Assembly: GCA_009602735.1 (NCBI GenBank) | Contig: WELA01002665.1 | Span: forward strand, 1-57,597 | Reading direction: 5' to 3' | DNA: 57,597 bases | Source of the DNA: Mesotaenium endlicherianum | Taxonomy: Eukaryota | Shown: one piece after another, positions 1,644 to 39,074 of the stretch | How the letters are laid out: the number at the start of each line of letters is the position of its first letter | Position numbering within the stretch: position 1 is the stretch's first letter | The notes under the pieces: model-generated | The model's input: the letters and a program-made list of their open reading frames with translations, nothing else | What the model was told of the DNA's origin: nothing | Database searches by the model: none | Translations under genes and position numbers: made by a program

Positions 1644-1870
1644 GCGAGAAGCCATTGATATGCACTGTCTTCTAACCTTGCTTATGTATGAGTTTACTGA
1701 TTGCATTATTGATGCTAGTTTACTTGCATTTGATTTCCGAGTGTCGTTCACTGCTAGTGTGTTGTCCTTTTGCCGTTTAATCAGTTAACGGAAAATCCAT
1801 AAAGATTACTTGCTGATATAAAGATCTTTATTAATTGTTAATCGCCTATTCGGTAAGTCGATTCATTTCA
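1644..1870 (+). repeat. 3' part of the 5' LTR
   Basis: Nearly identical to 9813-10039; ends TTCATTTCA directly before the PBS. Confidence 0.93.
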
Positions 1871-1871
1871 G

Positions 1872-1883
1872 CGGTATCGGAGC
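1872..1883 (+). promoter_or_regulatory. Primer-binding site, tRNA-iMet type
   Basis: CGGTATCGGAGC 1 nt after the LTR end; canonical is TGGTATCAGAGC. Confidence 0.85.
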
Positions 1884-1904
1884 AGTTATCACAGTTTTCT
1901 TTGT

Positions 1905-3394: not shown

Positions 3395-3411
3395 TCCAGT
3401 CTACTGACTGT
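3370..3411 (+). promoter_or_regulatory. -1 programmed ribosomal frameshift signal
   Basis: T TTA AAA in the gag frame, 7-nt spacer, perfect 10-bp stem ACAGTCAGTA/TACTGACTGT; the -1 frame is pol. Confidence 0.8.
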
Positions 3412-9320: not shown

Positions 9321-10039
9321 TGTAATGAATCAGTATATTGGTTGACATAATATACATTCAAATATAACAATTAAATATGTTCAGCCTGCTGAACTCTAGT
9401 TAATAATCAGTCTGCTGGACTTTATATTTAATATCAGTTTAATGACTCAGCCGAAAGCAACAGGCTGAAGTCAGCTTAAGTCAGCTTGCTGACACATTCT
9501 TTGACAGCCAGCTGACTTTCGTACTCGGTAGCAGCGAACTGCCTCAATATGCATCTAAGTGTGGTATGCTAGATGAATGGCCAGATGACATCCCTATGAT
9601 GGATGGCGATTCGGGATGATGGGAGATGGCGGTGGATTTGGTTAACCGAGGTTCTACCAACGTGGTTAACTCCCGGGTAGGCGGTGCCATCGCACTGGCG
9701 GTTGAACAATAGACTCATTCCATGTACATATGCTAGGCATTGCTCTCGAGTCGGTATTCGGAAACAAGGCCAACTCTCTTGTACAGCTTACTGAGAGAGA
9801 TTTGAATCCAAGGCGAGAAGCCATTGATACGCACTGTCTTCTAACCTTGCTTATGTATGAGTTTACTGATTGCATTATTGATGCTAGTTTACTTGCATTT
9901 GATTTACAAGTGTTGTTCACTGCTAGTGTGTTGTCCTTTTGCCGTTTAGCCAGTTAACGGAAAATCCATAAAGATTACTTGCTGATATAAAGATCTTTAT
10001 TAATTGTTAATTGCCTATTTGGTAAGTCGATTCATTTCA
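9321..10039 (+). repeat. 3' LTR (719 bp)
   Basis: TGTAATGAATC...GATTCATTTCA terminal inverted repeat; matches 1644-1870 and, inverted, 953-1643. Confidence 0.95.
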
Positions 10040-11293
10040 GACACGTACCACAGGCATATTTCATGTTAATCTGTGAGGTCTCCACAGATAGATAGCACAC
10101 ATATCATACAAACGAAGGATGTCAGAACCTGCGTGCGGAGCGAGTTGAGATTGAAGAAAAGGCGAGGCGAGGCGAGGCGAGGCAAGGTGCTTGATTTCCC
10201 CGGTAGCTTGGGGGGCTTGGGGTGGCTGGGTGGCTGAACCATGTCACGTGTCAGAGCCAGTGCTGACTCCCGACAACTCCAGGCGCATTCAGCATAAGGT
10301 TCAGGGTGGGAGCTCCTTGGGTTCAGGGCTGAAGTATGCTCTCTGGCTCAAGGGTTGACTTGGCCAGGTGGTCTGACAGGAGGCTCGTGCGCGGGGACCC
10401 CAACAATGGCACTGACGCTAAGTTGTTGGCATTCTCTGAGGTGCTCACGTGCCTGGGTCGTAGCAGCAAGGCACAGTTGTGTTCTCACTCACCGTCCATC
10501 TCGCTCCCACGTGCGCGTGCAGGCCTGCCGCCCGTGCGTCTAAAGTCACCTGTCGTAGAGCTCGGTCATCTACATGCTACACGTGCGGCTTGTGTCAAGA
10601 GCGTCTCAAGAATGCTACCACGTGAGCTGTTGAGCGGCACATGACTCAGCGTCAGGGCGCGGGTCTACCTGGCCAGCTGCAGGAGGGTGGGAGGCGCTGG
10701 TGGTGGAGGGGGTGGAGGAGGAGGAGGAGGAGAGTCTGGAGGCGTGGGCGCGCTGCCCCTAGCTGCCGGCTGAGCGCAGGCGTGCCGCCTACCGGCGCAA
10801 CTTCATGCGGTGCGTGTTTCCTCCCGCCCCTACGCGCGCATGCCTGCATGCGTTCGTGCCGGGCAGCGCAGTGGCAAGTCCTTGGAAGCGTGCAGACAAC
10901 TGCACCCATGGGCTTTCATTCCATTGAGAATTTAAGTGGAGGAGGGGCGTGCAAGGGCGGAGGGGGGGGGGTTCAGCATTTGGGGGTTGGGGGTTAGGGG
11001 GCAGGAAGGGCACCAGAAGATACTATGAGGCTTTGCTGGCAGCTTGTGATGCAATGATGCTCCCACCTGGGCGAGCAACGTGCACTCTCTTGCCCTTGCT
11101 GGCCCCAGCCTGGACTGCAGCAGCTGCCAGCCAGCTGCAGGATCTGAGCATTCTGGTAGAGCTCAATTTGCAGCGGCGAGACACCTTCTCACACGCTCGA
11201 GCGCTGAAAGTGAAACAAGCTAGTGAAACTGGTCAGCGTTCATCACATGCTGCGCGTGTCTTGTCACCACTTCCACTCACTCCCTCCCTCCAC

Positions 11294-13479: not shown

Positions 13480-14466
13480 TTAACGTCTAGTACACGGCTT
13501 CGAATAGCTCTTGGGTACACAAAACTGTGATCTCGGCGGCGTAACTAACGCAGAAGTTCCAGCGCCACGACTATGAGTAGTCACGACACCTTTGTTACGA
13601 AAAATGTAGTTGCTGATACCGCATTCCCCCCATACCACCACACGCACCACGTAGATGGAGCAAGGTAGAGGCCAGTGTTTCCCTCGCTCCAACACCATCA
13701 TGCGCATCAGATCGGCCCTCACCAGGTTTTCCCCTTTGACTACGGGTCCCAGGTGCCATAACCCCTCTTCCGGTTGTGGGCACGTAGGGTGGCCGGGAAG
13801 GCAACGGCCCTTTGCAGCACGCTTCTTTGCAAGGCTCTCAAGAAGCGAGCATTCAGAGGGGTCCTTGCACTGCTGACCAGCCAGCGGCCATTCCATGCCA
13901 GCTTAGCATGCAGCGAGGCCCAAAAAAACTTCCAAGGAAGCCGTAAACTGCATAAGGGTCAGGCTTGATCAACCTGGCGGCCAGGTTGGGCCTCCCGCAG
14001 CTCCCCCAGTGGTAGCACCCAAGTCAATCGCCTGGAGCGTGGCCCTGGCTTGTGACGTGTCAGAGGAGGTCCATTGCTCGGAGAAATAAACGCACTGGCA
14101 ATGACAGGAGTCCAATGGATGGATATCGATCGACACAACTCGCGAGGGGTCCAACAGTGAAAAAATGCAAAAGGGGGAAGGAAAACTTGCTGGCAGTCTG
14201 TGGGATCAGCATAGAACCCAAATGGCCGACCCACACAAGAAAGTGAAAGCACAGGGGGGAGGAGGAAACTGCAGGTCCAGCAATGACAAAGCGAGGGGCC
14301 AGGCGAGAGGGTGGGTTTGGAGAGGCAAGGAGAAGGGAGGGGGGCAGGAACGCTTGACTGTGGGGGCAGGGAGCGAGGGGGCGCAATAGAAGAAGGAATT
14401 GTGGAGGGGCCGATGACTGCGGGGGCGGGGAGGTAGGACAGGCACTTGCCAAAGGAGCAAGAGGTA
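13480..14466 (-). pseudogene. 3' part of an unknown Pro-rich gene split by the DNA transposon
   Basis: Removing 14467-26065 restores the frame ...PPNTEPQPL/PLAPLASACPTSPPPQ. Confidence 0.55.
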
Positions 14467-16853
14467 CACTCTAGATTTTCTTAGCACCCCCCTGAAATTA
14501 TTATGACATGAAAGTAATTTGACCGGGCAAAAAGACCCTTTCCGAGTCAACGCAGTCGGAATTCACTACTCAACATCTTAAAACGTCATTTCCGCTGATT
14601 TAGACGAACCTTAATTGTGTGAAGTGTTGACGTTCACAAACTCGCTTGGGCCGGTAATTGCCTATTATTTGACAAAATGGGTCCACTGACATAATCGTCG
14701 AGGGTCTGCTTCACATGTGCCGTTCCTTCATCGAAGCACTGTTGTGAACAATGCGTCAAGTGATCCCTTCATTAAAGCTTAGACGACCACAACGGGTCGA
14801 GCTCCCGCATTGATTCGTTGATAACGGAACTCTCAAGCCCGCTTCGACCAACAAGAGCCTCAATTTTTCCTTCATAACTACTGCATGCTTTCTTGCAGCA
14901 TCTATTTTCTCACGCAGCCAGTCATCTACAATTCTCACCCATTTTTATCAGCACAGGTCCCTGTAGCCGAGTATGCCTTTCACTACAGAGTAGCTTAATC
15001 ACCGCTTTACAGATGATGTTATTGCCATTTGTTTACATCCTACGTTGTCTTTCCTTTGCTCTCCTTCTCTACCAACCTCATTCCATGAACGGAAATACGA
15101 GAAAACGTCATGTGGATAAGAAAGCAGCGTACTTTTGTTCCCATCCTTTACCTGATGAAAGCATGTGTTCATTCTCCCTGAAGCCCAATTACAATGACAG
15201 ACTACTGGACCATCACAATGCTCAAATCCATGGCATTTTCCATTTCTGTATGTTCATGGGTTGCACATCTAGATACACAAACCGGTTCAATCTTGCATTC
15301 CACCAGGTCCAATCACGGTGAGTTTATTGCTCCATACCCATGCTATAGAGTGAAGATTGTTCTCTCCCTTTCCAACGTTTTTATTACTTTACCTGGTGGG
15401 ATGAATTGCTCCGATGTAACTCCTTCTGCACCCCATGCTCTTTATACTAACTTCTGAATTGTATTATTTTCAGGCAACAAGGTGTTGGCTTCCACTCACA
15501 CCAATATTGCAATGCCTCTCACTAGTACCTGTTCACTGACTTCCTGTTATTGACCCCTGTGTATATATCTTATACCCGTCTCTTTGCTACTTTGCGTTTT
15601 GGATACTACAAATATGATATCTATTTTTCTATCATTTCATTTTTCATCTTCGCCATATAACTACTGCTAGTTCGTGAGCTCACTTCTCACCAGTCCTCTC
15701 CACTTCCTGTCTTTCTGTTGTAGGAAATCCACTTCAAGAGAGTCAACCAATTCTCAAGTCTGCCACTACTTTAGTACAGGCAACATCTACGAATTATGAT
15801 GGTCCAACTGGTCTTGTTTCTGAGTCCAATCATCTGCTGCAGCTACAAGGTTGACTTCTTAATCAAATTACCAAATAGCTTATATTGTGGACACATTCAT
15901 TCTCGTTGTTTTCCAAGCCTTACCCTCTTGGATCTACTGTAATTCATTCCATACGGTTGTCTTCCCTTTTGTTTAAAATATTGCCTTTCGTCCATGAATA
16001 CTGTTTGACTTATTGTTCACGAAGCTTTGCGTCCTCCTCCGCATACTGCGAAAGTCACATAACTGGAAGCAGGCTACCTTCTCCCTTGCCGTATAGCAGG
16101 CGTCTGCCCCTTTGTGTCCTCTATTCATTGCTCTCTCCCTTGGACTAATTTGTCCGCTCTTTCTCTTCCATCGAACTTGCTCCCTCCTTCTCTCTCGCTG
16201 CTTCTTTCTTTATAACTATCACGTTCCCTTCTTTGTTTCCTTGAAGCTGTCTTACTCTGTGTTTACACTTATACATCTTGGTTTGTGGAACCTATGTGTT
16301 CAGGTGCAGTGCGTGAAACAGGGCAGCCTGCCAGTGCTTTTGCAAGTCCAACAACCATGCGGCTTGGAAGTGCTGCACTCTTGAATCAAAGGGCGCCCAT
16401 TATTGTACAAAATATTGACCAATATGAAAGTATGTTCTGTTCCAATATCGTTCATGTGCTCTCACATTTCCACTGAAATTCTTCTTGCCTGCCTGTTTCA
16501 TGTGTACGCTAGTTTTTATTCCATTTACTATGTGCGTCTTACTGTTGTTTGCACATATGCCCAGTACATCTTCATGTTCATAATTCTCAGGATGTTCTTG
16601 AATTTACTACTTTATACGTCTTTTGTCATTTTTTTTTGCCTCTGTTGCTGCTTTGTTATTTGCACTTACATATTACAAAACTCAGTGTTCTCCCTTGCCT
16701 CTTCCATCAACGTCATCCAATGCCCCTTAACCCTTCCCCCCTACTGGTTTCCCCCCTTCATGTATCGCTATTCTTTTGGGCATGGTCTCCTTTTTGTCAG
16801 TACTGGTTTTCACTCAATTGTCTCATTCTTCGTTTCATGCTCCATTTATGTAG

Positions 16854-17872
16854 CTCCCCTCGGTAGTTCGTCGTCTACCTCTTCACGGCAACAGAGGAGA
16901 AGAAAGGCTGCAAAGAGGCGTCGTGCTGTCATCAACTCCATCAGTTCTCTTTCTGATTCCTCGTCACATTTGGGTGTACCCTTATGTGAACCATTGCATG
17001 CCTCTGTACCTCTCCAGAACCCCTCTCCATGCCCTCCTCTATATACGTATCCTGCTCTACATAATGGTATTATTTCGTCTTCCTCACTTGGTACATCTCC
17101 CTCTAGTCACTCTACCCCATCTTTACTTACGACTGACCTCTCCTCTCCAGAACATTCTAATCCAAAATCCCCTTTGTCTTCACCCTGCATGTCGCCAGTA
17201 TTTAATGCTTACCATTCAGACCATGAAACTCGTCACCACACATACTCTGAATGTTGTACCCCATCTGGCTCTCCGAATGGTGGCACTCAGTCAGGAGACT
17301 CTGAGGATTTTGAGACTTTCGTGGACAACGTTAATCGCTCTCGAACACGTCCTGTAATGTCAAACACCACCTTTGGTGACCCTCTTGTCAGACCATACGG
17401 GCGCCTGAGGTCCTTCACATTTGCTGTTGTGTTTGCACACTACATGTTGGTTTCTCCAGATGCCCAAAGAATTAGCAGGGAACTCATAGCTGAGATTCTA
17501 AGCCACCAAAAGTTTTCTGTGAAAGACTTCTTGAGACAACCACGCACAGATTTGAGAAATTAAAGAAACAACTTGGTGAGGTTGGTGTGAAGCAATTTGT
17601 CATGCCGGATGGTGAAATTCCATACTATAGAAGCATAGTTGACACTCTTACTTCATGTCTTTCTGATCCTCGTTACACCGATCACATCCATTGGAAACCA
17701 GAATACACGCGCGGGGGGTTAGTAACCGGTATTTACAATGCACCTTTTGTTACTGACGATCATGATGACGATTTTTTCAAAGAGTATAAAGCTAGTTTCA
17801 GGACTTCTGGAGGTGCGGACCTCACTCTTCATCTTGGAGATAACGTTGTTTTCCATGAGACGACGTCGAATG
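16854..17872 (+). pseudogene. N-terminal exon of a CMC-type transposase, truncated before the catalytic core
   Basis: YGRLRSFTFA and GLVTGIYNAPFVTDD match YGKLRNFSFA and GVVTGVHNAPFVTDD of the transposase near 57500-57130; TAG/GT boundaries; stop and frameshift near 17561-17587. Confidence 0.75.
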
Positions 17873-18264
17873 GTAAATGTTAGCCACATATTTGCTTTTC
17901 TTTTTGTTTGCCCTGTCATGCATAGGGGTATGGATCTCTGTGAATTCCTTCCTTTCCCTATGCTCACCCAGTACTTATGTTCATGCTCCCTTGTGCTTGG
18001 TTTTTTGTATTCCATGCTTGTACGTTCTCATATATATGCTAGGCACGTCTGGGAGGCATGTGGTGCATGTTTCTCTTTTATGGTCGTACATATCTGCATT
18101 GCCCATTATGTCTCCCAGAACTTGCAGATCTTCATTAAAATTCTTCGTAACCACATTTGTGCATGCTTGGATTGCTCTCTAATTAATGTGCATGGTATAC
18201 AACTTACCCTCCAGTCTTGCCATGCAACTGTTTCCACTCTCTTTTCTCTTAGCACCCTCTTAGC

Positions 18265-18267
<3 letters not shown>

Positions 18268-18312
<45 letters not shown>
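18268..18312. repeat. (CT)n microsatellite
   Basis: Perfect CT run. Confidence 0.95.
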
Positions 18313-18314
<2 letters not shown>

Positions 18315-19121
18315 TACCCTCCGTCCTCACCCTAACTGTGCTCTGATCATGTGGCCTTTTCTTTCCCCTTTATGTATGTTACTCAGAGACCTCCATGTGG
18401 TAAGAGTTGATTATTTTGTTGCAGGGCACGTGAGAGGTGGCCATTTTGGGTTACTACACAGCAAACGCTGCTGCATCTTTGAACCTGGTGTGGCCATTGT
18501 ACGGGTGTATGGTTGTGGAGGAAGCAACATAGCATATGCTTTGCAATTGTCAGCAGGTAGGTGTGTTTTTGTGGTCATTGTGTTTTGTGCTAAGATTGTT
18601 TTCCGGCATGTAGCTTGGTATGAGTAAAATAATCATTTAGCTTCTAACTCTACGTCTATTTGGCCACCTTTATGCGTGCCTTCCTGCTCTTTGTGTAGGT
18701 GTGTAGGTGTGCTCGTTTGCACGTGCAACAATGTAATGTGAATGTGTGTCTGTCAATCTGTAAGTGTGTCGTTTGCGCATCTGGGGGTTGGAGGAGGTTG
18801 CTACTTAGGCTGACCTGGCGTCCTATAAAGTGGCGGCTTGCCTGCCTGTTGGCCTAGTAATTGAAAATTTCTTCCCAAGGCTATGAGCATGCATGCAGTA
18901 TTTGAGGCCAAGGCGCATGCGTGTGTTGCAAGCAAGTTTGTGATTAGGCAGAACTAGCGCCCTCATATGTGCATGCCCCGCACCTTGCTCCAACACGGGT
19001 GTGCTCGCGCACCTACAGGGTGCTGTGTCCAACCCCACAGGCCGCATAGCAGACTTACGAGGGGGGAGGCGCGTGTGTGCGTGCGTGCGCGTGGCGGGGG
19101 GGGGGGCGGCAAGGGGCGCAG

Positions 19122-19892
19122 GTGCATGGCAGACTGCGGGTGGATCGCGGGGCACTCGTACATGGTGTACAGCTCGCTGCTCAACGGGGGCGCGCAGGTG
19201 GTGCTTGAGGGCGTGCCTAGCTTCCCCGGCTGGGGGCACACCTGCCAGGTGGCGGAGGTGCACCAGGTGTCCATCTTGTACACAGCGCCCACCACCTTCC
19301 GCGCGCAGATGCGCACCGACGACGACGTGCGTCTGACCCTCTCCCTCCCTCTTGCCCCCTTCATGGTCCATTGTGCGTGCTTGCGTGCATGGGCTTATCC
19401 CATTAGCAGGAAAGGGGGGGGGGGGGGGGGGGGGNGGGGGGGGGCAGCGGGGGGTTGGATGACTGCTTCTCTGCTCGTGAGTAAGAGAAGGCGCCCTTCT
19501 CTTACACTCTGCATGTGCGTGCATGTGTGCTGTGTGCGAGTGTGCTGTGCGTCAGCATCCTGGGGTACGTGTCTGTGTAGCAAAAGCCACGGGAGAGGAG
19601 CACGCTTGCCCTCACAGTGCACGCCATCCACTCGCGCGTTGCCTGCATGCCACCGCCAGCCAACCACGACTTGTACGCGGGCTTTTTTCAGCTAGTGGGC
19701 CTGTCCCGCGCCCTCTCCTACTCCCAGTATCAGCAGCAAAGGTGTGTTCATTTTGGTTCTGTGGGCGCGGGGCTGGTGGCAGGGGGGGCAAGGGGGTGGG
19801 CGGCATTGGGCAGTGCGTGATGAGGTATACTTGCAGAAGTCGCTGCGTGCGCTGGGCTGCGTGGGAGAGCCCATCAACCCCCCAGCCTGGAG
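19122..19892 (+). pseudogene. ACS: Acetyl-CoA synthetase fragment, two exons (19122-19326, 19814-19892)
   Basis: CMADCGWIAGHSY..LLNG..EGVP..ILYTAPT and KSLRALGCVGEPINPPAWR are AcsA signature segments; CAG/GT splice sites; frameshift in exon 2. Confidence 0.9.
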
Positions 19893-20541
19893 GTGCGCCG
19901 ACCTCCTCTCTACCTCCTTCCTCCTCCCCTCCCTCCCTCCCCTCCTCCCCCCTCGGCCCCTCTCTTGCTGCAGCTGAATATCTCTCCCCCCTTGAAGAGC
20001 GAGCATGATATTGATGGCACATGCATGAGTCATGCTTGTCCGTGCTGGGCTGTGTGCTGCCTGCTATGCGCGCGCGCGGGGGTGCTGTCACATATTTCAG
20101 GTAACATACTTGATTCTTGAGTTTATGAGTGTCGTTCACCAACCTCACAGAAATGATGTTACCTCAATTGACTAACATTATTGCTGTTTATATGCACTAC
20201 ATCACAGGTTGTCACACATTGTGTGAAGTTAGTTGCATAATTTATGAACATAATTTTTCAAAGATGTTACTTGCTACTAATCTTATGCATAAAACAGGTA
20301 GTATTGCTGCAAAGTGCACATGCTATAAGACAAATATCGGAAGTGCAAAGACGATACATGCATCATGAGGTACACATTCAAAATTGTCATTTGGATGTCA
20401 AGATGGCATATGTGAAAATGTCAATTATTAGCAGACTTTGATAGCAGTGTCTTACAATCGGCGACATCACTCACTTACTACACAATGAAGGCAGGGATTT
20501 ACAACGAGGTACAGCCATGGATAACACAAAGTATATAGTAA

Positions 20542-21640
20542 TCATAAATAAGAAGGTACTATACATTGCTCAACATCATCTAGCAATCTCAACAAATCAC
20601 AAGGCTCATCCTCATTGCTGTCAGAAGGTAAAACCACATTATTGAAAATCGGAGAAACATTCTGCTCCAATGATTGTATCGTACTAAGATCTTGCTCATC
20701 TCCTGCATACAAACTTTCATTGTGTAGTGCCGCTTCTGACATCCCCTCAGGCAACTGCAATTGTTCTGTACTATTCTCCATCTCCACGCCAGCAGGTCTG
20801 CGATCACCATCTAGTCTCACACAAGTACGTGTGGGGGGCTCCCGCGGGTGTGACCGAATTTGTAACAGGAAAAAAAGAGAGGTTCATGTGTCAACAATAT
20901 TGATTGAAATATGTTGAGGGACACCGGAATCGCATGTGCAAAGGAAAATGGGGTGGGATGACAAGGTTCACGTACCACTTCTGGCCTGGAAGCGGGGTGA
21001 CATAAGATGAACATCATGCTGGACTTGCGCAGAAAACGTGACACCCGGTACTTATTTCCTAGAGAGCAAAAGATCTTGATGCGGGCAGGGATCTGCATAG
21101 AAACAGTAACAAACTCAATGTCATTCATTTTGTGAGGGTACAAAACAACACAAAAATTGCTATTAATGAAATTGTTCACTGCGAAAGCATCATGAAAAAA
21201 AATTATAATAGAACAAAGCATGTGTAAAATGTATACATACACACAAGCTGCAAATGGCACATGTGTGGAGAGAGTTGAAAGTGTACTACTTACAGCGTAG
21301 TCAGAGGGCTCAAAGTATGTCACAAAACCCTTGAGAGAAGCAAGTTTGCTGTCAACAAGCTTTGCCAGGTAATAGGCGTTCATTGCAGCTATGTGACCAA
21401 TTTGGGTACCGCGAGGACTGTGAACTTCAATAGCGTTGAAATCAAAGGGGTTGCAAGGATTCCTTTTCAGTGTCACTGTTTGCATATAACCAACATAAAT
21501 AATGTAATGTGCGTGTGGAAAGGAATAAAAAAGAAGGAACTTTCACATAAAACTTGCATTTTACCTGATGGGCAGCTGGTCACACCAGCCTACATACCAT
21601 CACATCTAAATAGGGGCATTATAGTGAACATACACATAGG
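20542..21640 (-). pseudogene. Stand-alone HIRAN-domain gene with acidic tail (multi-exon)
   Basis: VTLKRNPCNPFDFNAIEVHSPRGTQIGHIAAMNAYYLAKLVD is the HIRAN motif. A phase-0 GTAAGT..CAG intron (21293-21093) joins it to IPARIKIF. No helicase follows. Confidence 0.8.
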
Positions 21641-22358
21641 GACTGTATAGTCGACAAACATATAACAATAAAGGCAGAAGCGAGGAGTTGGGAGAAATAG
21701 GCCCGGGAGGGAATGGGAGCAAAGGTGAAGAAGGGCTTGTACACAAATAAAAAGATGTGCCAGCTAAAACACACAACCGAGCAGGCTGTAGGCAGCTCAC
21801 TTGGGATCATGAGATCTGACAAGTGTAGCAAGCCTTGCATAATTTATGAACATGATAAAACTAAGGGAAAGAGTATATGGAGGAATGCATATAAAGACAT
21901 TCAGCCCCATCATGCAAGGTCAAGGTCAAAGAGCACCCCACAAAACAAGATGCAATATGCACCCACATACTTAACTCTCACCAAGAGCACACGCACAAGA
22001 GGTAGCAGGCGTCAGGCACAAAACGGGGCACTTGATTGAGGCGGAACCTGACGGACGCACGTAAATGTTCAAACAATTGCGTATTGAAGTGAGCAACTGT
22101 CTCCGAGGCGGTATAAGACTGTAAAGAGCACGTAAGTGTTAGTACGATGAGGTATACGACGTGTCGATACGACAGCCGAGGATTACGTACGTGAGGTACA
22201 AGTGTTTAACATGGACATTGAACATTGAGAGGATAACGAGTGCAGCATGAGAATGACGAACAGTGGTCAAAAGCGGCGCATAAATGGCTACCCTGGAGTA
22301 GTCACCATCATCGTTAGTTACACAGTGAAGGTCTTTTTAAGTATAATATTGTGCACTT

Positions 22359-25190
22359 ATGGAAGACTCTACGTCGAAAGGGGCTTCTGAAGAGAGAAGC
22401 GAGAGTTCAAATGGAGGAAGTTTAGCCAAACGTGCAGATGGGGAAGGAACCTGTGTTGAAGGGAGAAATAGGTCCATCAGAACTAGGCAGCCTAGTGCTA
22501 AGGTGAGGGAATCGCAAATGGCTGAGGATGACGGAATGCAGGATGTTTTGAAAGGTGTGCAAGGGTCATTAGTAATCTCTAAGGAAGAAAAAGCACAAGC
22601 AAAAAAGCAAGAAATTCTTGTGGAGAACTACGTAGCACGGGTTGAAGTGAAGAGTAGAAACAGGGTAGAAAGAGTAGGCCAGAAAGTGAAATCTATCAGT
22701 GCAGTCGATAACGCTGCACAAACTGTCGTTGCTCCTGTAGGTGGCCCACCTGCTACATGTAAGCCTTTGTCAGTAGCTCAGAGAGCTTCTTTGGAAGCAG
22801 CTAAGGATGGTGCAAAAGAGGGAGTAAAAGAAGGTATGTCGGAGTTTTTTATGGGACATGACAACTTTAAACAATTCCATGACATACCTTTGACCATTCT
22901 GCAGGCAGTGGCTGTGAATGTTGAGAGGCTGGTGAGGAAATCACGGGTAGGTATTGAGGGATATAATGGGGAGAACGATACTTATGCTACAGATATTTTG
23001 GACAAGGGCATGGAAGACTTGAAAAGGAAAAGCGAGGCGCTATTAGAGCGAGAGACACAGTTTGTAGATGTAGTGGAACTATTGAAAGAGGCGACGGAGA
23101 AGTGGGACAACATTGAGGAATCACTCAAGCGCGTGAAAGCAACTTTGGCGACTGGGGTAGAAGGAAGGCGCGTCAACCACCGAAGGAAGTGAAGAAGGAA
23201 GATGACCCTTTGGAGGTATTGTGTATTTTCCTCATGCTGCAGTTGTGACTTTGTTTAGTGGTTTGCAATTTATGGTCATGTAAGCTAAGGGGTTGCCAGT
23301 TCTTGCATTTATTTTGTACAACACTTGCATTAGCAGACTTAGACGTTAAATATGGCAGTATTATTAATGCAAGTACAACATGCACAATTGTGCAGTGATC
23401 GCAAACCTACCCCACATGTTGCTGTTGAATGCCAGGCGTGTCTTATTGAACACCCACTGGTAGTGCAAAACACGTGGTGTATGTTGTATGAGGGCGTACA
23501 ATTCTGTTTTGCAGCTCAAGTGCACCAGAGAGGTATGGGAGGAGAAAAGAGCGAAGGTCATTGTTGGCCTTTTCAACAGAAGCGAGTATGCAAAGCAGCT
23601 CATGTGGATGGATGTATTGGCCAAAATGAAGGTGCATGAGCATGAAGAGATGATGCATGGCGCCTCCGACTTGGCTAAGAAGCTTTTGGAAATGCAAGAG
23701 GATGAAATTGTGAACGAGACAATATTGAACCCCATGAAGAAGGTAAGGGACCTCTACTACAGCAAGTTCAATTTGGCATGTTGCATACATCCTGCTTCTC
23801 AAAGAGTGCTATTTGTGTGCATAGCAAGTAGTTCCTGTTCATGTTGGGAAGTGAAGACCTGGTTTACTCTGTATATGTATTGTGGTCTGTCGGTAAGGTT
23901 CTTGTTGTAATGCAGGTGTGAAATACTTGCATAAATCCGAATTAATGAACAATAATGTGTGTGCATAAATCAAGTGAAGCCAGCAATGCAACTACTTGGT
24001 CTTCCTCTCAACAAGTTTAGAGTATATTCAGTAGTGTTCCAAATGCTGAGTACGCCTATGTTGGAGTGCAGTAAATGGGGTGTTTATGGATCCAGAGCAA
24101 TGGCGACTTCAACAAGTACATCACCCTGGATCGCACCTTGAGGGGGAACAAGATTGAGGATAGTTATTGAGGTGAGGACGGTACACTTGCATTGGAACAT
24201 GCAACAGTCATTGCCAAGCGGGTCTTGAATACTCGCTTTCCTTGGAAAGAATGGTACAAAACTGCACCTAAAGGGAAGGAGAGAATTGCACTGGAGATTG
24301 AGGGCGTGAAATATGTCGTGGCTTACTACAAGGACAAGCAGGTGAGTAGTTGTGTGCATTTTGATAGCAGCAGTATAATATCATAGAAATAATGTAAGAT
24401 GGATTATTTGTTTGCAAGTACATGGTTGAGTGACGCTCATATTGGCATTTTGAAACATGTCTTGCAGGGCAAGCTGGATGCCCTTGCTCCTGTGCCTCTA
24501 ACGGACGTTGCGGTGCCCAGGAATGGTGCGGTCAACAGTATTGCATCACGAGGAGGTAAGTCATGCTGTGAAAAGTGGAAGTCCACAAAGAGGTAGAATG
24601 GCTGTTGACAAGCATTGAGGGTGTATGGTTGGAAGTTAGCGTTGGTCTGGTCAAAGAATGTGCCACTTGGCGTATATTTGTTGGCATTTGACAGAGTGCA
24701 AATATTGCTGTGAGGACCTGTTGTGGTGCTGCCGTGGTGCATTGCATGCCATGGTATTGGGGCGGGGGGGTTCAAAGAGCTTTTTATGATGCATACATGT
24801 TCAAGAGGGCTGTGGTTGATAGTGATGTAAGTACTAAGGTGTCTACTTGTCGTCTCAAATACATTTCTTGTGGTCTGGTTTTGAATATAGGGTCTTGGTG
24901 TGCTGTGGCCGATAGTGGGCATGCCTGGCATTGGGACGGGGGCTACAGAGTGATTATTATGATGCACACAAGCAGGGGTTATTTGGGTACTCGTGATTTT
25001 GGCCTGTCAACGAATGCTGTGCGATGATTGCCGTTGTTGCCGCACGCATTACCTGACTAATTTGTTTTGTTTGTGACAGAGACAATGGCAAGTGAAAGCA
25101 ACATGTGGGCACAATCAACAAGTGGATTGGGAATAGCAAGTGAGGGAGGGTTGAGAAAGAAGATGAAGAAGTTACATAGACATGAGTGAT
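22359..25190 (+). pseudogene. Unknown multi-exon transposon accessory gene (low-complexity N-terminus, coiled coil)
   Basis: 277-aa ORF, then coding-like exons ending at GT donors (~23742, ~24341, ~24556). Lies inside the TIRs. 3' limit approximate. Confidence 0.55.
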
Positions 25191-26065
25191 GAGACCAGAG
25201 TTATATTAATATGACGGATTAATGTACCTGACAAAGGCAACTTGTAATGAGCATTGCTATAGCTAGATAATACAGTAGATGGTAGGCATAGTTATACACA
25301 ATTTCTTTTGTCATATTTCATTTCTGCAAGTAGGAGTACAGGATCTGTATAAGAGCATTATTATTTGGTGGTACATAATAAAATGCAATGTTTTCAGTGC
25401 ATACTTGTCCGTAGCCATTACAGTGTGTGGGCCAATGTACTTTGGGTTTAACTCAGTAATGAATAGCAATAGTTTGTTTATGAAGCACTCATAAGTGACA
25501 AATGAATGATAGGGGAGACTAATTGTGATGGTAGAGTCATGGTTGAGTCGGTGGAAAAGGCTTCGTATGCTATATATGTGAATATGATTCATGAGCACGG
25601 TGTGTGAAATGAAATACTGAAATGGACCCTAAGAAGTTCTATTGAATAAGGTGGAAGGGAATGCAAGTTCTTAGGGCAGCTATATAAGCAGGTGTCAATG
25701 ACAACGAAAATGAAGGACGTTCATACAGGGCAGGACTGGAAAGGGCCGTCGGACACAATGACAGAGAAAACACTGTTCGGCGACAGTGACGCCGAACTTT
25801 GTCAGGTATTTTAGACTTGAACGGCGTCAGACATCTTGTGCTGCGACAACGCTTATTTGAAATGAAAAATGAAGTACATGCGGAATGGACACTTGTGGAC
25901 GCGGCGTCATTTCAAGATCTGTCCCACGCGCAGGCCTCTGATGATTTTGTCTGAGACTGCGTCTAACGCGGGTCGCCGGCCTGAAGCCGGCCTGAAAATC
26001 ATTTTCATATCGACAAGTCGCGGACTTTCAGAGCACTTTCAGACGAAGGGAAAATCTAGAGTGTA

Positions 26066-27950
26066 GTGGTTGAGGCTCCGTGTTGGGGGGCACCGCAGGG
26101 GATGGAGACGATCTGGGCAGAGAGGCTGGAGGGTGAGTTGGCTAGGCAGCCGGTGTTGCTGGCTCAGCCTTGGGGGCGCCTGGCACAAGTCACTCCAGCT
26201 TGGGTGTGGCCGACAAGTGGCCCTCCAGCAAGCGAGGGAGGTAACCTGCCAAGTGGACATTTTGTGGCACGTGGCACTCGACAGGAAGTGCGAACGGCTC
26301 CCCCGCTGACGCGTGGGCGGCAGGTGGCAGCTCTTCAGCTGGGGTGTGGGTGACAGGTGGCACTCCAGCAAGAAAGGAAGGTGGCCCGCCAACTGGACTT
26401 TTAGTGGCAGGTGGCGCTCCGAGAGGAAGTGTGGGCGGCTCCACAATTGACGTGTGGGTGACAGGTGGCAGTCCGACAGGAAGTGCGGGCAGCTCTCCAG
26501 CTGGGATGCGGGTGACAGGTTGCGTTGCTGCATGGGAGACAGGTGGCACTCCCGCAGGGAAGGCAGGTGGTGCTGCAGCGGGGGTAGTTGCACCACGTGG
26601 CACTCCGGAGGGTCTGTATGTGACAGGTGACGGAACCCCAAGCGTAGCAGGGTTGTCGGAAGCAGGTGCCGACGATCCAAGAAGACTTGGGCTGCCAGGC
26701 CCTCCCGGGGTGGCCTGGGTGGGCGACTCTCCAACCGGCAGCACGGGGGGGTTGCTTTACGGCGTAGCGGGCGGCAGAGGGGCGGCTCTGGTTGGTGGGC
26801 TGCTGCTGCTGCCGCTGCTCCTGCCGCTGCTGCTCCTCCGCAATAGGGAGAAGGGGAGGAGGGAATTGCGCTGCTATCTGTCCCTCATCTGCTGGAGGCG
26901 GTGTTGATACGGCCTCCGGCAAGTCCCCTGGAGGAGGAGGAGCTGCGAGGAGCATGAGGGAGAAAAAAAGGGGAATGAGAAAAGAGATGACAAAGGAAGA
27001 GAAATGGACTAGCTTTCTCCCAGTCATGGCTGCCGGCTGCTTCTTGCCATCCTGAGCACGCAAGACATTCAAAGTGCAAACACTTGCAAAGACGCACTAT
27101 CGGGATTTGAGCGGGGTGGATCGCAGACCAGATGATGAGGGCCCCGCATGTACATTTTCTATCACGTTCACGCCTACCAGCAGCACAGCATCACTGGGAG
27201 AGCCGTAGGATAAAATAGCCAATCTGTTCAGGCCCCAGGGTACGGACAAAATTGGTGCCAAACTTCTCTTTTGCGAGAGCTTTAAGATAATCGGGGCAAA
27301 CAATGCACCTGAAGGAGGAGTGGGCGGCGCTTGCAGAACGACAGCGGCGGGACAATGAGCCCGTCCACGCCCCGCATGGAGATCCGGCCGTCCAAGTCCA
27401 CGTCAGGGTTTACGGCCCTCACAAGCCCTGGCAAGGCCTGCAGCAGGCGCCTCCTTGAAGGGGACACGGTGAAGAAGGCCGTGGCGGCGTCGAGGTTGAA
27501 GAAGAGCCCGCCGTCGACGACAGATGTCAGGACAAAGTTCCCCAATACCGTCTCCAGCTTGCTAATGGCGCCCATCAGGTCCGCAAACGTGTAGTACTTT
27601 GGGATGGCAAGCTGCTGACGTGGATGCTCCGCCAGGCGACGAGTTGGGTGAGGCACTTGGGGGCCCTGCTGATCTCAAAGGTAGGAGGGACAGCAGTGGT
27701 GGAGGAGGCAAAAGAACGCCGCAGTTCCCCCATGGCGCGAGCACTGGCGATAGGGAAACGTGCGGGAGGGTGAGGAGTCGGGGGAAGGTGGCAGCACGTG
27801 CGATAAAAGTGATGCAGGTGTGAAGAACGGTGTGAAGAACCTGCAGGCGGAGGCCCCTACCCAAGCAATGGATGGTGATGTAGGTGGCGGAGGCAGTACA
27901 GAGCCTGGGGTTTCAGCAGCTGGCGCAGAAGAGAGGAAGAGGAAAGACAA
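26066..27950 (-). pseudogene. 5' part of the unknown Pro-rich gene, with ~20-aa GVPPVTH-type repeats
   Basis: Overlapping ORFs 27282-27656, 26401-27072 and 26190-26744; repeated GTGACAGGTGGCA motif; continues in frame at 14466. Confidence 0.5.
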
Positions 27951-28930: not shown

Positions 28931-31221
28931 GAATGTAAGGTTATGAAAGTGTAGTTTGTTTCTTTCTAGTATTTTATATGCATAGAGTGTGATCTTAGAA
29001 GAACTTTGGCCTTTATTTCAAGTCATTTGGACAAGTATTGAGGTAGTTATGAATTTGGGAAGTTTTTAGTGAGTTTTTAATGTTACAGATTCTATTTAGT
29101 GACAAGGACAAGTCCAGTGACGAAAATTTTGGTTGGAGTCCAGGAAGTAGGACATTGAAACATGAGGGTTCTAGAAAGTACGTACAATTATGTAGAGTGC
29201 CAAAGTGATCGTGGAATTTCTAGAAACTCCGTGAGGAGTTAGTGGATTGTGTAGTAGAATATTCTAGAGTGTGATTGTGTGCGTGTGAGTGTGCTAGCTG
29301 TGCGCTAGGGCTTTGTGCGCAGCCAGGGTTTATGCCTTGGTGGTGCGCAGCCGTGAGCGCGTCGTCGGAGTTCCAGCCGGCAATCGGGCCGCACAGCGCA
29401 ATCGAGGATGCCCCCCCTTGCGTGGGAATGCTAGGCACGACCGTTGGCCGTGCCGGGACGTGTGCGCATGACACGGGTTGACGTGAGCACGTAGCTGCTC
29501 GGTGTACTAGGCAAGGTCACCTACATGGAAGGAGCCATAGGAGAAGGTTCTGGAGGTACTTTGCTAGAGAGGACACTTAGAGTTAAAGGATAAATGGGAA
29601 GCACAAGGAAGTAGAGGGGGCTTATTCTAGTCTAACCTTCTTATCTTGCACGACTTTTCTTAATAAAGTGAGTTCTTTTCCACTCCTCTCTCATGTAGCC
29701 CTCTAACTCTTACAAGGGTGGCATACCACCAGGCCACTCCTCCTTGTGTATGCAACTAGGAAAGGTCCTCGTGCACGCTTCCACTCGCGGGTGAGGGTGC
29801 GTGAGTGTGTGTGGGCGCACTCCCCGCACCCTTCCCCCTTTCACATGGTATCGGAGCTACTTAGTTGCTTCATTTGGAGGACTTTGGTTGGTGATGCTTG
29901 TAGGAGTGTAGAGAGGGTAGAGAGGAGAAACAAGGATGATTTATAAGTTGCTAAGGGCAGCCATGAAGACATTGATGCAAGCTAGCATCTCACTCTCTTG
30001 AAGGAGGGAGGAGATGGGAAGAGGGAGGTGCTCCAAGAAGTGTTAACTTGGATGCAACCAGATTTTCGTACGTCTTCTTTATAGTATAAGAAGGTTGCCC
30101 AAGCATGGTAGTGATATAATTAATATAGAGCAACCTTTGCTTGAGTATGGAGGCATATGAGCATGAAGAAAATCTGGAGTCTACACGGCTGAATTTTCCC
30201 TTGAAGATGCAAGCTCTTTGGTGTTAAGCACTTTCTTTGAGGGGGGCTTAGCATAGAGGTGATAGTGGCTAAAAAGGAGTGTGTGCCCATCTTTATTTCA
30301 GATCTTCAATGAAGGTGGAGCAGATTTTAAGGGTAGGCAACCAGGGACTTAGCAAGCATGTGTACTTGCAAGTCTAGAAGCTTTGGCGGGCATGGCACTC
30401 GCAAGCCAAGAGGAGCTCATGAGAAGCTCAAGAGAGGGTGCACCGGGGTGTTGCACCAAGTTGGCCAAGTATGTGGCCAGATTTGGGTTGCCTTGCATCA
30501 CTCCTATATAGCCACTGGATATGTTGACCAGCCATGGAGCTTGGTCATTCTTATGGAGATTGATGAAACCTCAAGTGAAGAAAAGCGCCGTGGAGAAGGC
30601 TTGGAGCAAGAAGAAGTGACACAGATTTTTCTTCAAGCAAGATAAGTGGAGATGGAGCCTTTCAAGTTCAGATTTTTCTTTTTCTTATGGAGGAGACTAC
30701 TATGGAGTACTTCATGGTGAGAGCTATGATGAAGATAAGCCTATGGTGCGGAAGAAGAAGCAAGGTATGAAGTTGGTGCAAGAGGGCTAGTGCAAGAGAT
30801 GTCTCCCACTAGAAGTGCGTGTGCGAATAGTGTTGTGTTGGGCATAGTTAAGGGGCAGATTTTGGTGCATCTATGGAAGCTCTTCATGTGAAAGTAGAGC
30901 ACCAAGGCAAGCTGGGTTTAGTAGTAAGAAGTGTCATTGGGGTGACCAAGGCTAGAGTGCACTCAAGAAGCTAAGCATGTGGAAGGAGTTGCACAAAGAG
31001 AGTAGCCTATCCTCTAGTGCTTTAGTGCACGGGTCAAGTGAAGACCAAGGAGGACTATGGTCAAGTGAGGTTAGTGAAATAGGTGGAGGTAGATATGACC
31101 ACAAGTAGCTATCTTCAGCCCGCTAGCAAAGAAGCGACGCGGGAAGGTGAAGGTGAAGGAGAAGCGCTTGTTTTGGTGACCTTGGCCCGGTCATCACACG
31201 GAGCAAGCGTGCCTCCTAACA

Positions 31222-32163
31222 TGTGACGTTTCTGCTTTTCGAGAGGATCTTTCCTTGGTATTCAAGAAATATTTAATTCAAGTGGGAGGAAAATCTGTAC
31301 ACTTGTGGAAATTGACGAATACTCAAAAGAGCGAAAGTGAAAACTAACGTACAATGTGTGCTTGTGAGAGTTGCACTCACAATGACTCTGCAGGTAGTTA
31401 TACATGCACAACATGAGGCACTGGAGTGCTTCGAGTCACCACCTAGGGCACTGGTTCATGTTTAACGAAAACGGTCGAAGGGACGTGTCCCATTCGGCCG
31501 AATGCTCGAAACGCGCAGTTGGCTGTTTGGAGACTCTTCGACGGTTTCCGAAAAACCGTTTCGCGCCAAACGGGCGTTTTCGCGTTCTTGCAACTTTCCA
31601 AAAAAGTCGCGATTGATCGCGGAGTCGCGTACACATGCGTTCGTCATGAATCGGTAGTTTAAAAAGCTACTTTGGCCAATCGGTTAGGTGTGAACGTTTC
31701 AAACGAAAGTTGCGGGTTCGAATCCGCTCGGATGCAAAGCGACTTTGCATATTTCGTTTCGTTTGACTTTACGACTGTTTGTTCGTATTAATGATACGAC
31801 AGTGTCTTCGTATTACGACTAGTCGTAACCCGAAATCTGTGATTGTCCATTATTCGTAAAAATGACAATCAAAATAACTTAATCAAACAATGATTAATTA
31901 AATTATCATCTCATAATTATTCAAAGTAACTTTATGAATAATTATGTCGTACTTTTGCGAAGTAGTCGAATTACGTTACGACGCTTTTTGCAATAGTATC
32001 TCGGTCGTTTCGCCAATCGACCGGGAATTAATCGGCACACGCGTGTGGCGAATGATTCAATGTGATGCAATCATTTATCAAATAACTTATGATAAATAGT
32101 ATAACGTATTTTAAGTAATTGGGAAAACGTCCCAAATACGCCTAAAAAGCTCAAATCGTTACA
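31222..32163 (-). mobile_element. Solo LTR (942 bp) with TSD TAACA
   Basis: TGTGACG...CGTTACA ends; TAACA at 31217-31221 and 32164-32168; host element is contiguous when it is removed. Strand inferred from a TATAA-like motif. Confidence 0.9.
31666..31736 (+). ncRNA. tRNA-like Pol III A/B-box segment (pseudo-tRNA) inside the solo LTR
   Basis: A box TGGCCAATCGG (31673-31683), B box GGTTCGAATCC (31715-31725), tRNA-like spacing and T-arm; acceptor and anticodon stems pair poorly. Confidence 0.55.
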
Positions 32164-33057
32164 TAACAACCTTGGCGAGCGCGCATCGCCGGTGGAGCAA
32201 GTAGAGGTGTATGATCCCCTTGCTCATGTATAGAGCAGACCCCAATTGCTCAAGTGGAGGAGCTCCTAGAAAGTGAGCTCAAGAGAAGCCCGCTTGCAAG
32301 ACGACGTGTGTGCGTGCACAAGATGAGGTGCAAGCACTAAGAGTATGTGCGTATGCCCAAGTTATGGAGCTCTTGGAGGCGTTCCAGATGTGTTTCTTGG
32401 AGCCTTGTGTGAAGGCTGACCTTCAAGAAGAGCCAGAGGTATGTGGGAGTGAGCATCTAGCCAAGGAGAAGACTATGATGGAGTTTGGTGCACCACGAGC
32501 GAGACTACGCGCTCATGTGTAGTGATTTGAGTCATAATATATTAGTTGGCATATATTTTAATGTTTTCAAATATATTTGGAGTAGTATTGTGTGGAGTCA
32601 AGTGTGAATAGGTACTCTAGTAACTTGGTTCATGTCCTTTGAACCTTCTAAGGCATTTTCGAAGTTAGAGGAAAGACCTAGAAGAACTCCATGTGGCAAA
32701 AGTCAAATGTGCCTTTTTTAGGTCAAAAGGACATGTGTACATTATTCTAGAAAGAGGTGGCAAGTTTTGGGATGTGTTGGGTGCCAACACATCAACATAC
32801 ACCTTCCTAGAAATTACTTATGTAGCAAGTATATAAACAAGAGCTAGAACATAGAAAGACATTCCAGAATCACTCTTGTACTTGCCAAAATCCAGAAATA
32901 TATTAACTTTCAAGAAGCCATCTCTCTTTCAAGAAGCTACCACTTGTGTTCAAAGATCCTTGTCTTGAATAGATAAAGTATTCTGTTTTACTAAGTACTT
33001 TATCTATCTGTTTCACTACAGTGGTATCGGAGCTAGGCACTTTGGTAGCACAAGAAG

Positions 33058-34338
33058 ATGGCCGATCCTCAAGACCAACAGCAAGCTTTCGAAGGAAGCC
33101 CTTCCTCTCCAAGACACCCTCCTCCAGCGCCGATGGGAGAGCCCACTCAAGAAAATCTGCAACAACAAGAAGCACCACAAGGAGGAGCACATCCTCCTCC
33201 AGCGTCGATGGGAGAGCCTACTCAAGGAAATCTGCAACAACAAGAAGCACCACAAGGAGGAGCACCGTCAAATCCCGTGGCAGCCGCTGTAGCAAAGTTA
33301 ACCCCACCACAAGGAGTTCCCGCAAATGAGTGGGCAGCCTTCCTAATGACCGTCCACAACCAAGTAGGCTTGGCCACCTATGAAGCAACCGTGCAAGCGT
33401 CAAGAGAAGCTATGGCTGCCATGGTTGCCCCTATTGCGAGCAATGCTCAAAATCCAGCCCCGGCTCAAGCGCCTCCACAAGAGCCAACGAGAGCAAGGAA
33501 ACTCATCAAGCCCGGCAAACCCGACACTTTCAACCCCGGGAAAGGTGCCAACCTGAATTTATGGCTCTACCAAGTGGAGACGTACCTCGCGTTCCTTGAA
33601 GTACCCGAGGAGGACTACGTTCCCTTTGCCGTTACCTTACTTAGAGGAGCAGCAACATCATGGTGGCGTAACTATCAAGCGGCTATATATCAAGCTATGG
33701 CGCACCCCATGCTCGGCCAAGAGCCCCCACCATCATATGCAAGATGGGCAGATTTTCGTGAGGCCCTCAAGAAGCAATTCATGCCCATCAATGCGGAGAA
33801 GATTGCCCGAGGAAAGCTCCACCATCTCAAGCAAACGACGTCCGTTTAAGAGTATACATCCAGATTTCACGCCCTCACTCTTGAGATCCCCAACACGTCT
33901 CTCGAGGAGAAGATTGACCGCTACATCTTTGGCCTCAAACCCAAGGTGGCAATGGAAGTGGCATTACGCGACTTGACGGACTTCTCAAGGATCATTGAAG
34001 TGGCCCGAAAGGTGGATACCTTGGATTTCAAGCACTCCGTGCCTTCATCTTCACGGGTACCGGCGACGCGGATGTACGCAGCCCCTTCCACATCCGAATC
34101 TGGACCCACACCCATGGAAATCGGAGTTATTAAAAGGGACCCCGCGGCTGCCCGGAAGAGTGGAAGACCCTCCAATGACACTTATGATGCAAGAAACCAG
34201 CAAGGAGTGAAAGCAAGACTCTCCCCGGCTGAAAAAGAAGCTCTCATGACGGCTGGACTATGCTTCTATTGCAAGGAAAAGGGCCATCGTGCACTTTCAT
34301 GCCCCAAAAAGTTGTCAAAAAACGGACAGCGCCGGTAG
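33058..34338 (+). pseudogene. gag: Gag with CCHC knuckle
   Basis: [40 protein letters not shown]; single in-frame TAA at 33847-33849. Confidence 0.92.
33118..33267 (+). repeat. 75-bp x2 tandem repeat in the gag N-terminus
   Basis: PPPAPMGEPTQENLQQQEAPQGGAH repeated. Confidence 0.9.
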
Positions 34339-34352
34339 GCCAGGAGCCTACC
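34317..34352 (+). promoter_or_regulatory. -1 frameshift signal
   Basis: A AAA AAC in the gag frame followed by hairpin GGTAGGC-CAGGA-GCCTACC. Confidence 0.78.
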
Positions 34353-37300: not shown

Positions 37301-37426
37301 GAAAGCTCTACAACACGCGCAAGATGCTCAAGCAAGAGTAACGAACAGATCCAGAAGAGAAATTACGTACAGAGTGGGTGACAACGTGTTACTATCATCC
37401 AAGAATATTTCTCTGAACAACAAGCC
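34317..37426 (+). pseudogene. pol: Pol (PR, RT, RNase H, integrase)
   Basis: LVDSGA, FIDD, TDAS, HHCC, ISMDL, HPQSDGQTER; one in-frame TAG at 36492-36494; truncated before any chromodomain. Confidence 0.95.
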
Positions 37427-39074
37427 GCTAGAGCGCCGAACAGGCCAGCCTGCGTGCCGGGCTAAGCGCCAGACTGCGAATCGCTGATGTTGAGCACGAG
37501 GTCGGCGAATTCGGTGTACTTGAACGCGCTCTCGCTCAGGAGGACCTCCAGGGGCGTTGCAGCGTCTGCAAACCCTGCAGCCCAATAGGCCCATCTTGAA
37601 GATTCCTATCGTTGCATGCACACCTTTCAGCAAGCTCGCTCGAGCAGCTAGCAAGACAGACAGTTGTTTTGACAATGTCAAAGGCAGTGGAGATGAGAAG
37701 AGATTGCGCACCGGGTGGGGGTGGCGCAACTGTCGCTGGCAATGCTGCGGGGGGAGGGGGGGACAGCGTGGGCGGCGCGATCAGCGGCGGAGGAGGGGCT
37801 GCCCCGGAAGAAGCTGGGGCACCGGGAGTTGCCTTGTGCGCGGGGGGAGGAGGGGTGCGAGTGCTCTGCCCCAGCGGCAATGGCGGCGGCGACGGCGGAG
37901 AGGGAGCAAGCGAGGACGGAAAGCGTTGGGGGCAGACCCTGAGCTTGCTGGAGTTTTTGACGATGGAAGACGTGAGGTTGCCGCTGAAGAGAGCGGGGGA
38001 GCCCGGGCTGAGGGCCACCAAGCAGGAGCGCCTGCCCACCCACACGTCCGCCGCAACGGCAGCCTGCAGCGGGCACAGAAGGGACATGAGAAAGACCCAG
38101 GTTGGACACTAGATCACCCTCCGAAGGGGTCGCAGCCTCGCATGACCATCATGGTTGACCCATCATGGCATGAGAAAGACACCACTTATTGAGAAGGACT
38201 CGGGACTGATGAAATGCATGAGTGAGCGCACGCGGGGGGGGGGGGGTAAGTGGGGTGGCGTTTACATACCGGCACGCGGTCTACAAAGAGTGAAAAGTCG
38301 ACGGTGTTGTTTGCAAAGGAGACGCCGCACAGGTACATCTCGGAGTAGCCTGTAAACTGCAGAGCCTTGCCCGCAGCCTGCCACGCGCGAGCACACACTC
38401 TTGCACAGTCATCATGCCAGCTCACTTATGACTGCTTCTTGGTCGCCTAGCTGCCACATGTGGCTGAGAAGTCATCATCTGACATCACACAAAACCCCCC
38501 CCACAGCTAACCCAGACACCCCTGCTCAGCTTTTCTCTTTGACCGCCTGTCTTCCTGCCTTCCTGCCTGCCTGCCCTCCTGTCTCACACCGCAAAACAAG
38601 CGTTCAAGCTGGTCCGGTGAGATACGTAGGCTCATATATGAGTCAAGGGAGCGGGCAATGCGCCGGCAATCCTATTGGCAACCCCACAATCAAACTGCTC
38701 AAAGTCAAGGCCTTGCAGCAGACAAGTCGCCGGCGGGCTATCCTCACCACCTGTCTAGTGTGCAACTACAAGAGCTACCGTCACGCTTTTTTGAGTTTCA
38801 AGCAGCCACCACCCGCAGTGAACCAGTCTCAGAGTTGGCGGCTTGGTAAAACATCAACTCAAATGTAGCCCTTCCTGTGAGCTCATGACATTGCGTGCGG
38901 GAATGGAGTGTATGAGCCAGAGCCACCTGGCACTTCACCTAGATTTTTAACAATGGAGGAGCTGAAGCTAATCCCTCAAAAAAGAGAAGAGGGTAGGCAA
39001 AGGAGAAGGAGAGAGAAGGGGAGCGGGAGCGTGAGCGGGAGGGGAAAGCGGACGGGGGAGAGCGGAAGTCTCAC

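Follow-up and report, generated by a model that had tools for sequence, protein, structure and literature searches.

A HIRAN domain gene inside a DNA transposon

Why does a DNA transposon carry a gene for a stand-alone HIRAN domain, and does that gene serve the element? These questions are raised by a locus in a stretch of DNA of 57,597 nucleotides (hereafter, the window). An initial annotation of the locus described an intron-containing HIRAN domain with an acidic tail and lacking SNF2 and RING parts, and suggested that the domain be verified with its Pfam profile and that its phylogeny be compared with that of host HLTF. The annotation also suggested that the product might cap ends, steer gap repair, or target replication forks, all of which are putative functions.

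The HIRAN domain is encoded on the minus strand at positions 21475-20976 and is split by one intron. In a Pfam profile search, the stretch 20820-21542 matches PF08797 with a score of 42 bits (cut-off 24.7; E 8.5e-11), and the exon at 21294-21488 matches by itself with an E-value of 1.6e-10. A PDB search with the window HIRAN finds human HLTF HIRAN chains (E 2e-9). The core exon (21294..21475) carries equivalents of the HLTF residues N91, D94, and H110, with F at the position of Y93. The exon at 20976..21092, which is collinear with residues 142-178 of the most similar protein (P0001, see below), encodes the last strand and the C-terminal helix. These two exons are separated by a GT..AG intron of 201 nt (21093..21293), whose excision yields an alignment to P0001 of 97 columns without gaps. 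The annotated intron-containing domain is therefore borne out by the profile search and the intron, and SNF2 and RING domains are missing, as stated, from the 48 window stretches scanned with Pfam (17 + 11 + 20 stretches; the window has 228 open reading frames [ORFs] of at least 80 amino acids).

The gene was also described as AT-rich like the element, and its GC content is indeed 0.42, compared with 0.65 in a host-like fragment at 19000-20085. GC3 is 0.53 for the HIRAN gene, 0.36-0.42 for the genes of the element, and 0.94 for a captured host exon. As annotated, the HIRAN gene is head-to-head with an ORF that starts at 22359.

Exon structure and transcription

The span given in the initial annotation ended at 21640, but the gene starts upstream of this position. 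A 5' exon on the minus strand (22292..22311), with an ATG at 22311, is followed by a GT..AG intron of 173 nt (22119..22291) and a predicted second exon (21982..22118). A predicted small exon (21598..21642), with GT/AG sites and an open frame, occupies the expected place of the first HIRAN strand and the loop that contains Y72. An exon chain from 22311, in which all introns are of the GT-AG type, can create an open frame of 219 codons. The ATG of the 5' exon is less than 50 bases from that of the divergent 22359 gene, and the two genes likely share a bidirectional promoter.

Evidence for transcription comes from run X5, which behaves as RNA in that the host acetyl-CoA synthetase donor gene (see below) is spliced in it. 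One X5 contig of low depth has a loose end of 14 letters that fits the canonical minus-strand intron 22291-22119. Thus, the transcript would start at 22306 or beyond. The same contig end supports the acceptor of the second exon, whose donor is predicted only. X5 pieces across the HIRAN exons are unspliced and have a depth of 2-3. Depth over 20305-21525 is zero in the raw RNA runs X18 and X21, for which 6% and 13% of the reads, from an unknown strain, were used.

The acidic tail described in the initial annotation stands as an open frame. This frame of 106 codons (20542..20862, minus strand) is likely a former last exon; 21 of the 106 residues encoded by 20862-20545 are D or E, and its codon-position GC is like that of other element genes. 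However, its sole acceptor led by a polypyrimidine tract, at ~20860, has AA where the terminal AG should be, and an X5 contig crosses the acceptor region unspliced. Because of these two observations, the acidic frame is no more than a putative part of the HIRAN gene. P0001 has no such tail, ending ~15 residues past the stretch that it has in common with the window copy.

The transposon carrying the gene

The annotated placement of the gene within a transposon is confirmed by the ends of the element. A DNA transposon of 11.6 kb (14467..26063) with CAC..GTG ends is delimited by a perfect inverted pair of 14 bp, with the left repeat at 14467..14480 (plus strand) and the right repeat at 26050..26063 (minus strand). 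TA dinucleotides flank this one insertion on both sides (14465-14466 and 26064-26065), and GC content is 0.44 inside versus 0.61 outside the right end. A shuffle control produced one CAC-started 14-bp pair with the same flanks in 30 shuffled windows, and the only other real pair of this kind in the window falls within a long inverted duplication. The HIRAN gene is probably a gene belonging to this element. The element is inserted into a family of GC-rich repeats with a period of 54 bp, which make up the right flank (26193-26607), are multi-copy in DNA, and have other copies that are expressed.

CMCT/ESTA transposons are characterized by inverted repeats with CA..TG termini and by a TA target-site duplication, both of which are present here. 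Judging from these termini, the 11.6-kb element apparently has ESTA-like ends, belongs to the CMCT clade, and is non-autonomous. No Pfam, PDB, or homologue match to a DDE transposase with C(2)C and H(3-4)H motifs was found for the element genes. Because a transposase core was not identified, the superfamily assignment is drawn from the ends alone.

The left part of the element contains a broken gene, termed gene A (16850..18558, plus strand), whose ORF frames indicate a frame change near 17550. Gene A has no Pfam or PDB match and no recognizable catalytic core, and presumably resembles the N-terminal part of EnSpm/Plavaka-type transposases. Directly after it, where the transposase core would be expected, lies instead a captured fragment of a host gene resembling acetyl-CoA synthetase (18920..20085, plus strand). 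This AMP-binding fragment (PF00501, E 1.7e-6, below the cut-off) comprises exons and intron DNA, with a GC content of 0.65 and an exon GC3 of 0.94. Its donor is a second, spliced, and expressed copy with at least 25 differences in ~190 exon bases (~87% alike).

This neighbor suggests an alternative origin for the HIRAN gene, namely an old, passive capture of the Pack type, in which the element acquired the 3' part of a P0001-like, stand-alone host HIRAN gene, before it took up the acetyl-CoA synthetase fragment, and this part plays no role in transposition. Pack-CACTA elements offer a precedent, because those described in PMC6379663 are non-autonomous elements that contain host fragments with introns, like the proven acetyl-CoA synthetase piece here. 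That piece has its donor elsewhere, and this donor is evident in DNA run X1, whereas the HIRAN exons have none at 82% identity. Depth in X1 is flat at 64, and no second contig at least 82% alike is present over 20305-21525, although X1 is a possible source of the window sequence and hence not independent of it. The single copy at this identity is a point in favor of passive capture. The HIRAN gene differs from a fresh Pack-CACTA capture as presented in that source by having no close host donor and by selection-like conservation (see below). Moreover, its GC3 is element-like, and the gene, with a 5' exon and intron of its own, is oriented away from the neighboring element gene.

To the right lies a divergent multi-exon gene of no known family (22359..25190, plus strand), in which the ORF 22359-23192 is followed by exons near 23506-23745, 24084-24341, 24405-24566, and 25070-25186. 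This gene has a premature stop at 24168 and a probable frame change near 23165. Thus, both element genes that flank the HIRAN gene are broken. The 22359 gene is a candidate TnpA-like partner gene; Pfam, homologue, and PDB searches did not reveal its family. An Atlas search with the 22359 ORF produced leads that were all under 0.9. A word-based homologue search found no match for the HIRAN frame, the 22359 ORF, or the 24084 exon, but these blanks carry little weight because the method also missed P0001. A single, weak PDB match of the 22359 ORF to MarR (E 0.043) was taken as chance.

Another X1 contig matches 23508-23706 at 84% and 24059-24348 at 81%, with joints out to 25992, which points to one or more diverged siblings in the family. 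Around 24059-24348, at least two diverged relatives of the 22359-25190 region occur among the X1 contigs. When the flanks of the element are joined, the minus-strand frames are open in all three phases, which is uninformative.

Damage to the window copy

The initial annotation overlooked damage to this copy of the HIRAN gene. The first strand and the Y72 loop were sought upstream of the core exon in any frame, by using a frameshift-tolerant search whose scores were compared with those of shuffled sequence. Scores of 11-17 were obtained, compared with shuffle means of 14-17 and with 43-57 for intact members of the family. The predicted exon at 21598..21642 has no detectable similarity to the first HIRAN strand, and its profile score is at the level of shuffles. 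An alignment at 21660-21600 was considered as the missing strand and rejected, as it is gap-hungry and no better than shuffles. Likewise, when the N-terminal 68 residues of the 219-codon chain are compared with P0001, 245 of 500 shuffles score as high. The complete barrel, with its first strand and Y72 loop, is present in P0001 and incomplete in the window copy, which most likely makes no working, folded HIRAN domain.

The absence of the first strand also fits passive capture, as it resembles a capture truncated at its 5' side. Together with the evidence that this element captures host DNA passively, it is a point against an accessory gene.

A stand-alone relative and the ancestry of the gene

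Among 1.84 billion representatives, 21 matches were found at E<=0.001, of which P0001 is the best (E 1.6e-21; the next is 1.5e-7). This protein has 193 amino acids, and HIRAN (56.3 bits) is its sole Pfam family, with no SNF2 or RING domain. Its cluster comprises the twin gene models jgi/Mesen1 ME000202S02754 and ME000276S04610, which reside on different scaffolds and are identical except at 1 of 193 residues. These twins may reflect a segmental duplication or a doubling in the assembly. The same Mesen1 annotation includes a third HIRAN-only model, P0006; Mesen1 presumably denotes the zygnematophyte alga Mesotaenium endlicherianum, and the window probably derives from this alga or a relative. 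No loci related to P0001 were found in metagenome contigs, and viral contigs likewise yielded no related loci.

The two core exons of the window match P0001 at 57 of 97 residues, with no gap and no stop, whereas the best HIRAN domain linked to SNF2 matches at 34 of 88. Divergence between the window copy and P0001 spares conserved positions. The two are identical at 26 of 33 family-conserved columns versus 20 of 39 variable columns (Fisher p 0.026; rank test p 0.0006), and by this protein-level proxy the conservation of the domain looks selected. At columns where the two differ, the residue of the window copy resembles the family no less than that of P0001 (17.2 vs 6.5), and in this comparison of protein sequences erosion has gone no further in the window copy than in P0001.

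These observations speak against passive capture. At 41% amino-acid divergence, the core exons still have neither stops nor gaps, and the window copy is no more eroded than P0001. Furthermore, the donor would be near-identical twins on two scaffolds. Weighing both sides, we regard old passive capture as somewhat unlikely.

A different origin would be a host HLTF/RAD5 gene whose 5' exons were captured recently and neutrally. The matches to the window include some short HIRAN-only entries from short contigs that are perhaps fragments, which would suit such a capture. However, no donor at least 82% alike is found in X1, SNF2-linked HIRAN domains match less well than the stand-alone protein, and GC3 is 0.53 versus 0.94 in the captured host exon.

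The phylogeny adds a further line of evidence. In a tree of 23 rows, the window copy and P0001 are grouped in 200 of 200 bootstrap trees (branch 79/96, unstarred). The pair falls outside a starred clade that contains two plant-like SNF2-linked rows, and is placed loosely with bacterial-type stand-alone HIRAN rows (91/88, unstarred). However, a grouping of the pair with the plant-like SNF2-linked HIRAN domains survives an AU test (p 0.076), which leaves a plant HLTF-like origin compatible with the data, and none of the matches was identified as the HLTF of the host itself. Taken together, the P0001 match, the tree, GC3, and X1 disfavor a recent capture of host HLTF exons, which we consider very improbable. 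The description of the gene as long-resident rather than a recent HLTF capture is accordingly retained.

Because intact, near-identical stand-alone relatives exist in the algal gene set, the gene is likely an old passenger of the transposon family. The intact relatives may likewise be carried by such elements, for which the twins on two scaffolds are at most indirect evidence of several copies. Our preferred reading is that the locus is a damaged stand-alone HIRAN gene in a broken ESTA-like transposon and represents an old accessory gene of that family, a reading to which we assign an even chance.

One database protein, P0002, has 724 amino acids and carries three HIRAN stretches ahead of an SNF2 domain.

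The end-binding pocket and a possible function

R71 and K113 of the HLTF HIRAN domain have backbone roles. In the same domain, the 3'-OH is recognized by D94, the last two bases are held between Y72 and Y93, and function requires N90/N91 (PMC5773155; PMC4666394). Among the changes described in the part of PMC4666394 used here, the N90/N91 double change alone fully impaired function. In the alignment columns, the window copy keeps N91, D94, and H110, has F at 93 and C at 90, and lacks the segment with Y72. P0001 keeps Y72, N91, D94, and H110, and has V at 93, G at 90, A at 113, and S at 71. In the other rows, residue 93 is aromatic in 13 of 13 and residue 113 is basic in 10 of 13. The predicted model of P0001 superimposes on the HLTF HIRAN domain with an rmsd of 1.3-1.5, and P0001 is closer to this domain (E 6e-17) than to the bacterial structure 3K2Y (E 6e-4). 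Free 3' DNA ends are the predicted ligand of the intact relative, although V93, A113, and S71 mean that end binding may be weak or lost.

Loss of end binding would be expected if the accessory gene has changed its job, so that its product acts by contacting other proteins, perhaps decoying partners of host Rad5/HLTF, or binds element DNA in another way. The lack of Y93, of a basic residue at 113, and of R71 in P0001 is consistent with such a change. So is the loose placement of the pair among bacterial-type stand-alone HIRAN domains, which are predicted antitoxins with a non-repair role in the account given in PMC11706625. However, P0001 retains N91, D94, H110, and Y72, the window copy retains an aromatic residue at 93 (F), and in HLTF full impairment took the double change noted above. 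A changed job is thus doubtful in our estimation.

If the HIRAN gene is an accessory gene that retains end binding, its role might be to compete for the ends that excision creates. In vitro, the isolated human HLTF HIRAN domain is a dominant negative that inhibits resection and keeps full-length HLTF from removing Cas9 from a break, as described in PMC11237066, and this behavior is the reason for choosing a reading based on competition for 3'-OH ends. By this precedent at Cas9 breaks, a HIRAN domain with no motor would bind 3'-OH ends made at excision and compete with host HLTF/Rad5. The competition would delay both removal of the transposase and resection, and delayed clearance would in turn favor templated gap repair of the donor site. 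Given an accessory gene, we hold this mechanism to be possible, although short of an even chance. The broader proposal is that a family of ESTA-like algal transposons keeps, under selection, several copies of a motor-less HIRAN anti-repair factor, derived from the end sensor of the host, that occupies 3'-OH ends at transposition breaks and blocks host HLTF/Rad5. We consider this proposal unlikely.

Relation to known systems

The window gene and P0001 resemble the HIRAN domains of human HLTF and yeast Rad5 (PDB 5BNH, 4S0N, 6KCS) in sequence, in the predicted fold of P0001, and in N91, D94, and H110. Unlike HLTF and Rad5, the gene encodes no SNF2 motor or RING domain and resides in a transposon. 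The window copy further lacks the first strand and Y72, and P0001 differs from HLTF by V in place of Y93 and by the absence of a basic residue at 113.

ESTA elements of rust fungi are EnSpm-like transposons of the CMCT clade with a TA duplication, and share with the element described here a CAC start, TA flanks, and an accessory gene (PMC12730594). The three ESTA families in Table S1 of that report measure 12.1-14.3 kb, compared with 11.6 kb here. ESTA elements as presented there are fungal and carry TET/JBP cargo, whereas the present element likely has an algal host, carries HIRAN as cargo, and yielded no transposase core.

The Plavaka elements of red algae with PAG1-3 (bioRxiv 10.1101/2025.02.11.637652) are likewise large, CMCT-type elements with long-kept accessory genes and mostly degenerate copies. 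The PAG cargo described in that preprint is methylase/SET and oxygenase-like rather than a repair module, and the ends are TGT or CATCA, versus CACTC here.

Stand-alone HIRAN proteins of bacteria and phages (lp_0118, PDB 3K2Y; HipI) are similar in being single domains, in their link to mobile DNA, and in the loose tree grouping, to the extent described in PMC3417536 and PMC11706625. In contrast, the gene described here is eukaryotic, contains introns, lies in a cut-and-paste element, and is closer to HLTF than to 3K2Y. No report of a transposon-borne HIRAN gene in a eukaryote was found among the matches listed from the open-access literature. Cargo-carrying CMCT elements and stand-alone HIRAN proteins of bacteria and phages are thus already known, and HIRAN is probably new as a type of cargo.

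Accessory genes of large eukaryotic cut-and-paste transposons, in the accounts used here, act on chromatin marks or silencing and include TET/JBP, SET, and methylase genes (PMC12730594; bioRxiv 10.1101/2025.02.11.637652). If the HIRAN gene is truly an accessory gene with the proposed function, its 3'-end-binding repair module would open a second front, namely control over the processing of excision breaks. Under the rival explanations, the gene would be just another decayed passenger of a Pack-type element.

Other features of the window

A large inverted duplication occupies 1-4137, in which 1-915 and 3222-4137 are 95-97% alike. It overlaps a Ty3/gypsy element whose LTR-like repeats lie at 1644-1871 and 9813-10040. 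The region 29000-46000 contains two or more additional Ty3/gypsy elements. One of these (33049-37487) has gag, RT, RNase H, and integrase, and another (40526-44664) has gag, RT, and integrase, with LTR-like repeats at 39762 and 45168 that are ~94% alike.
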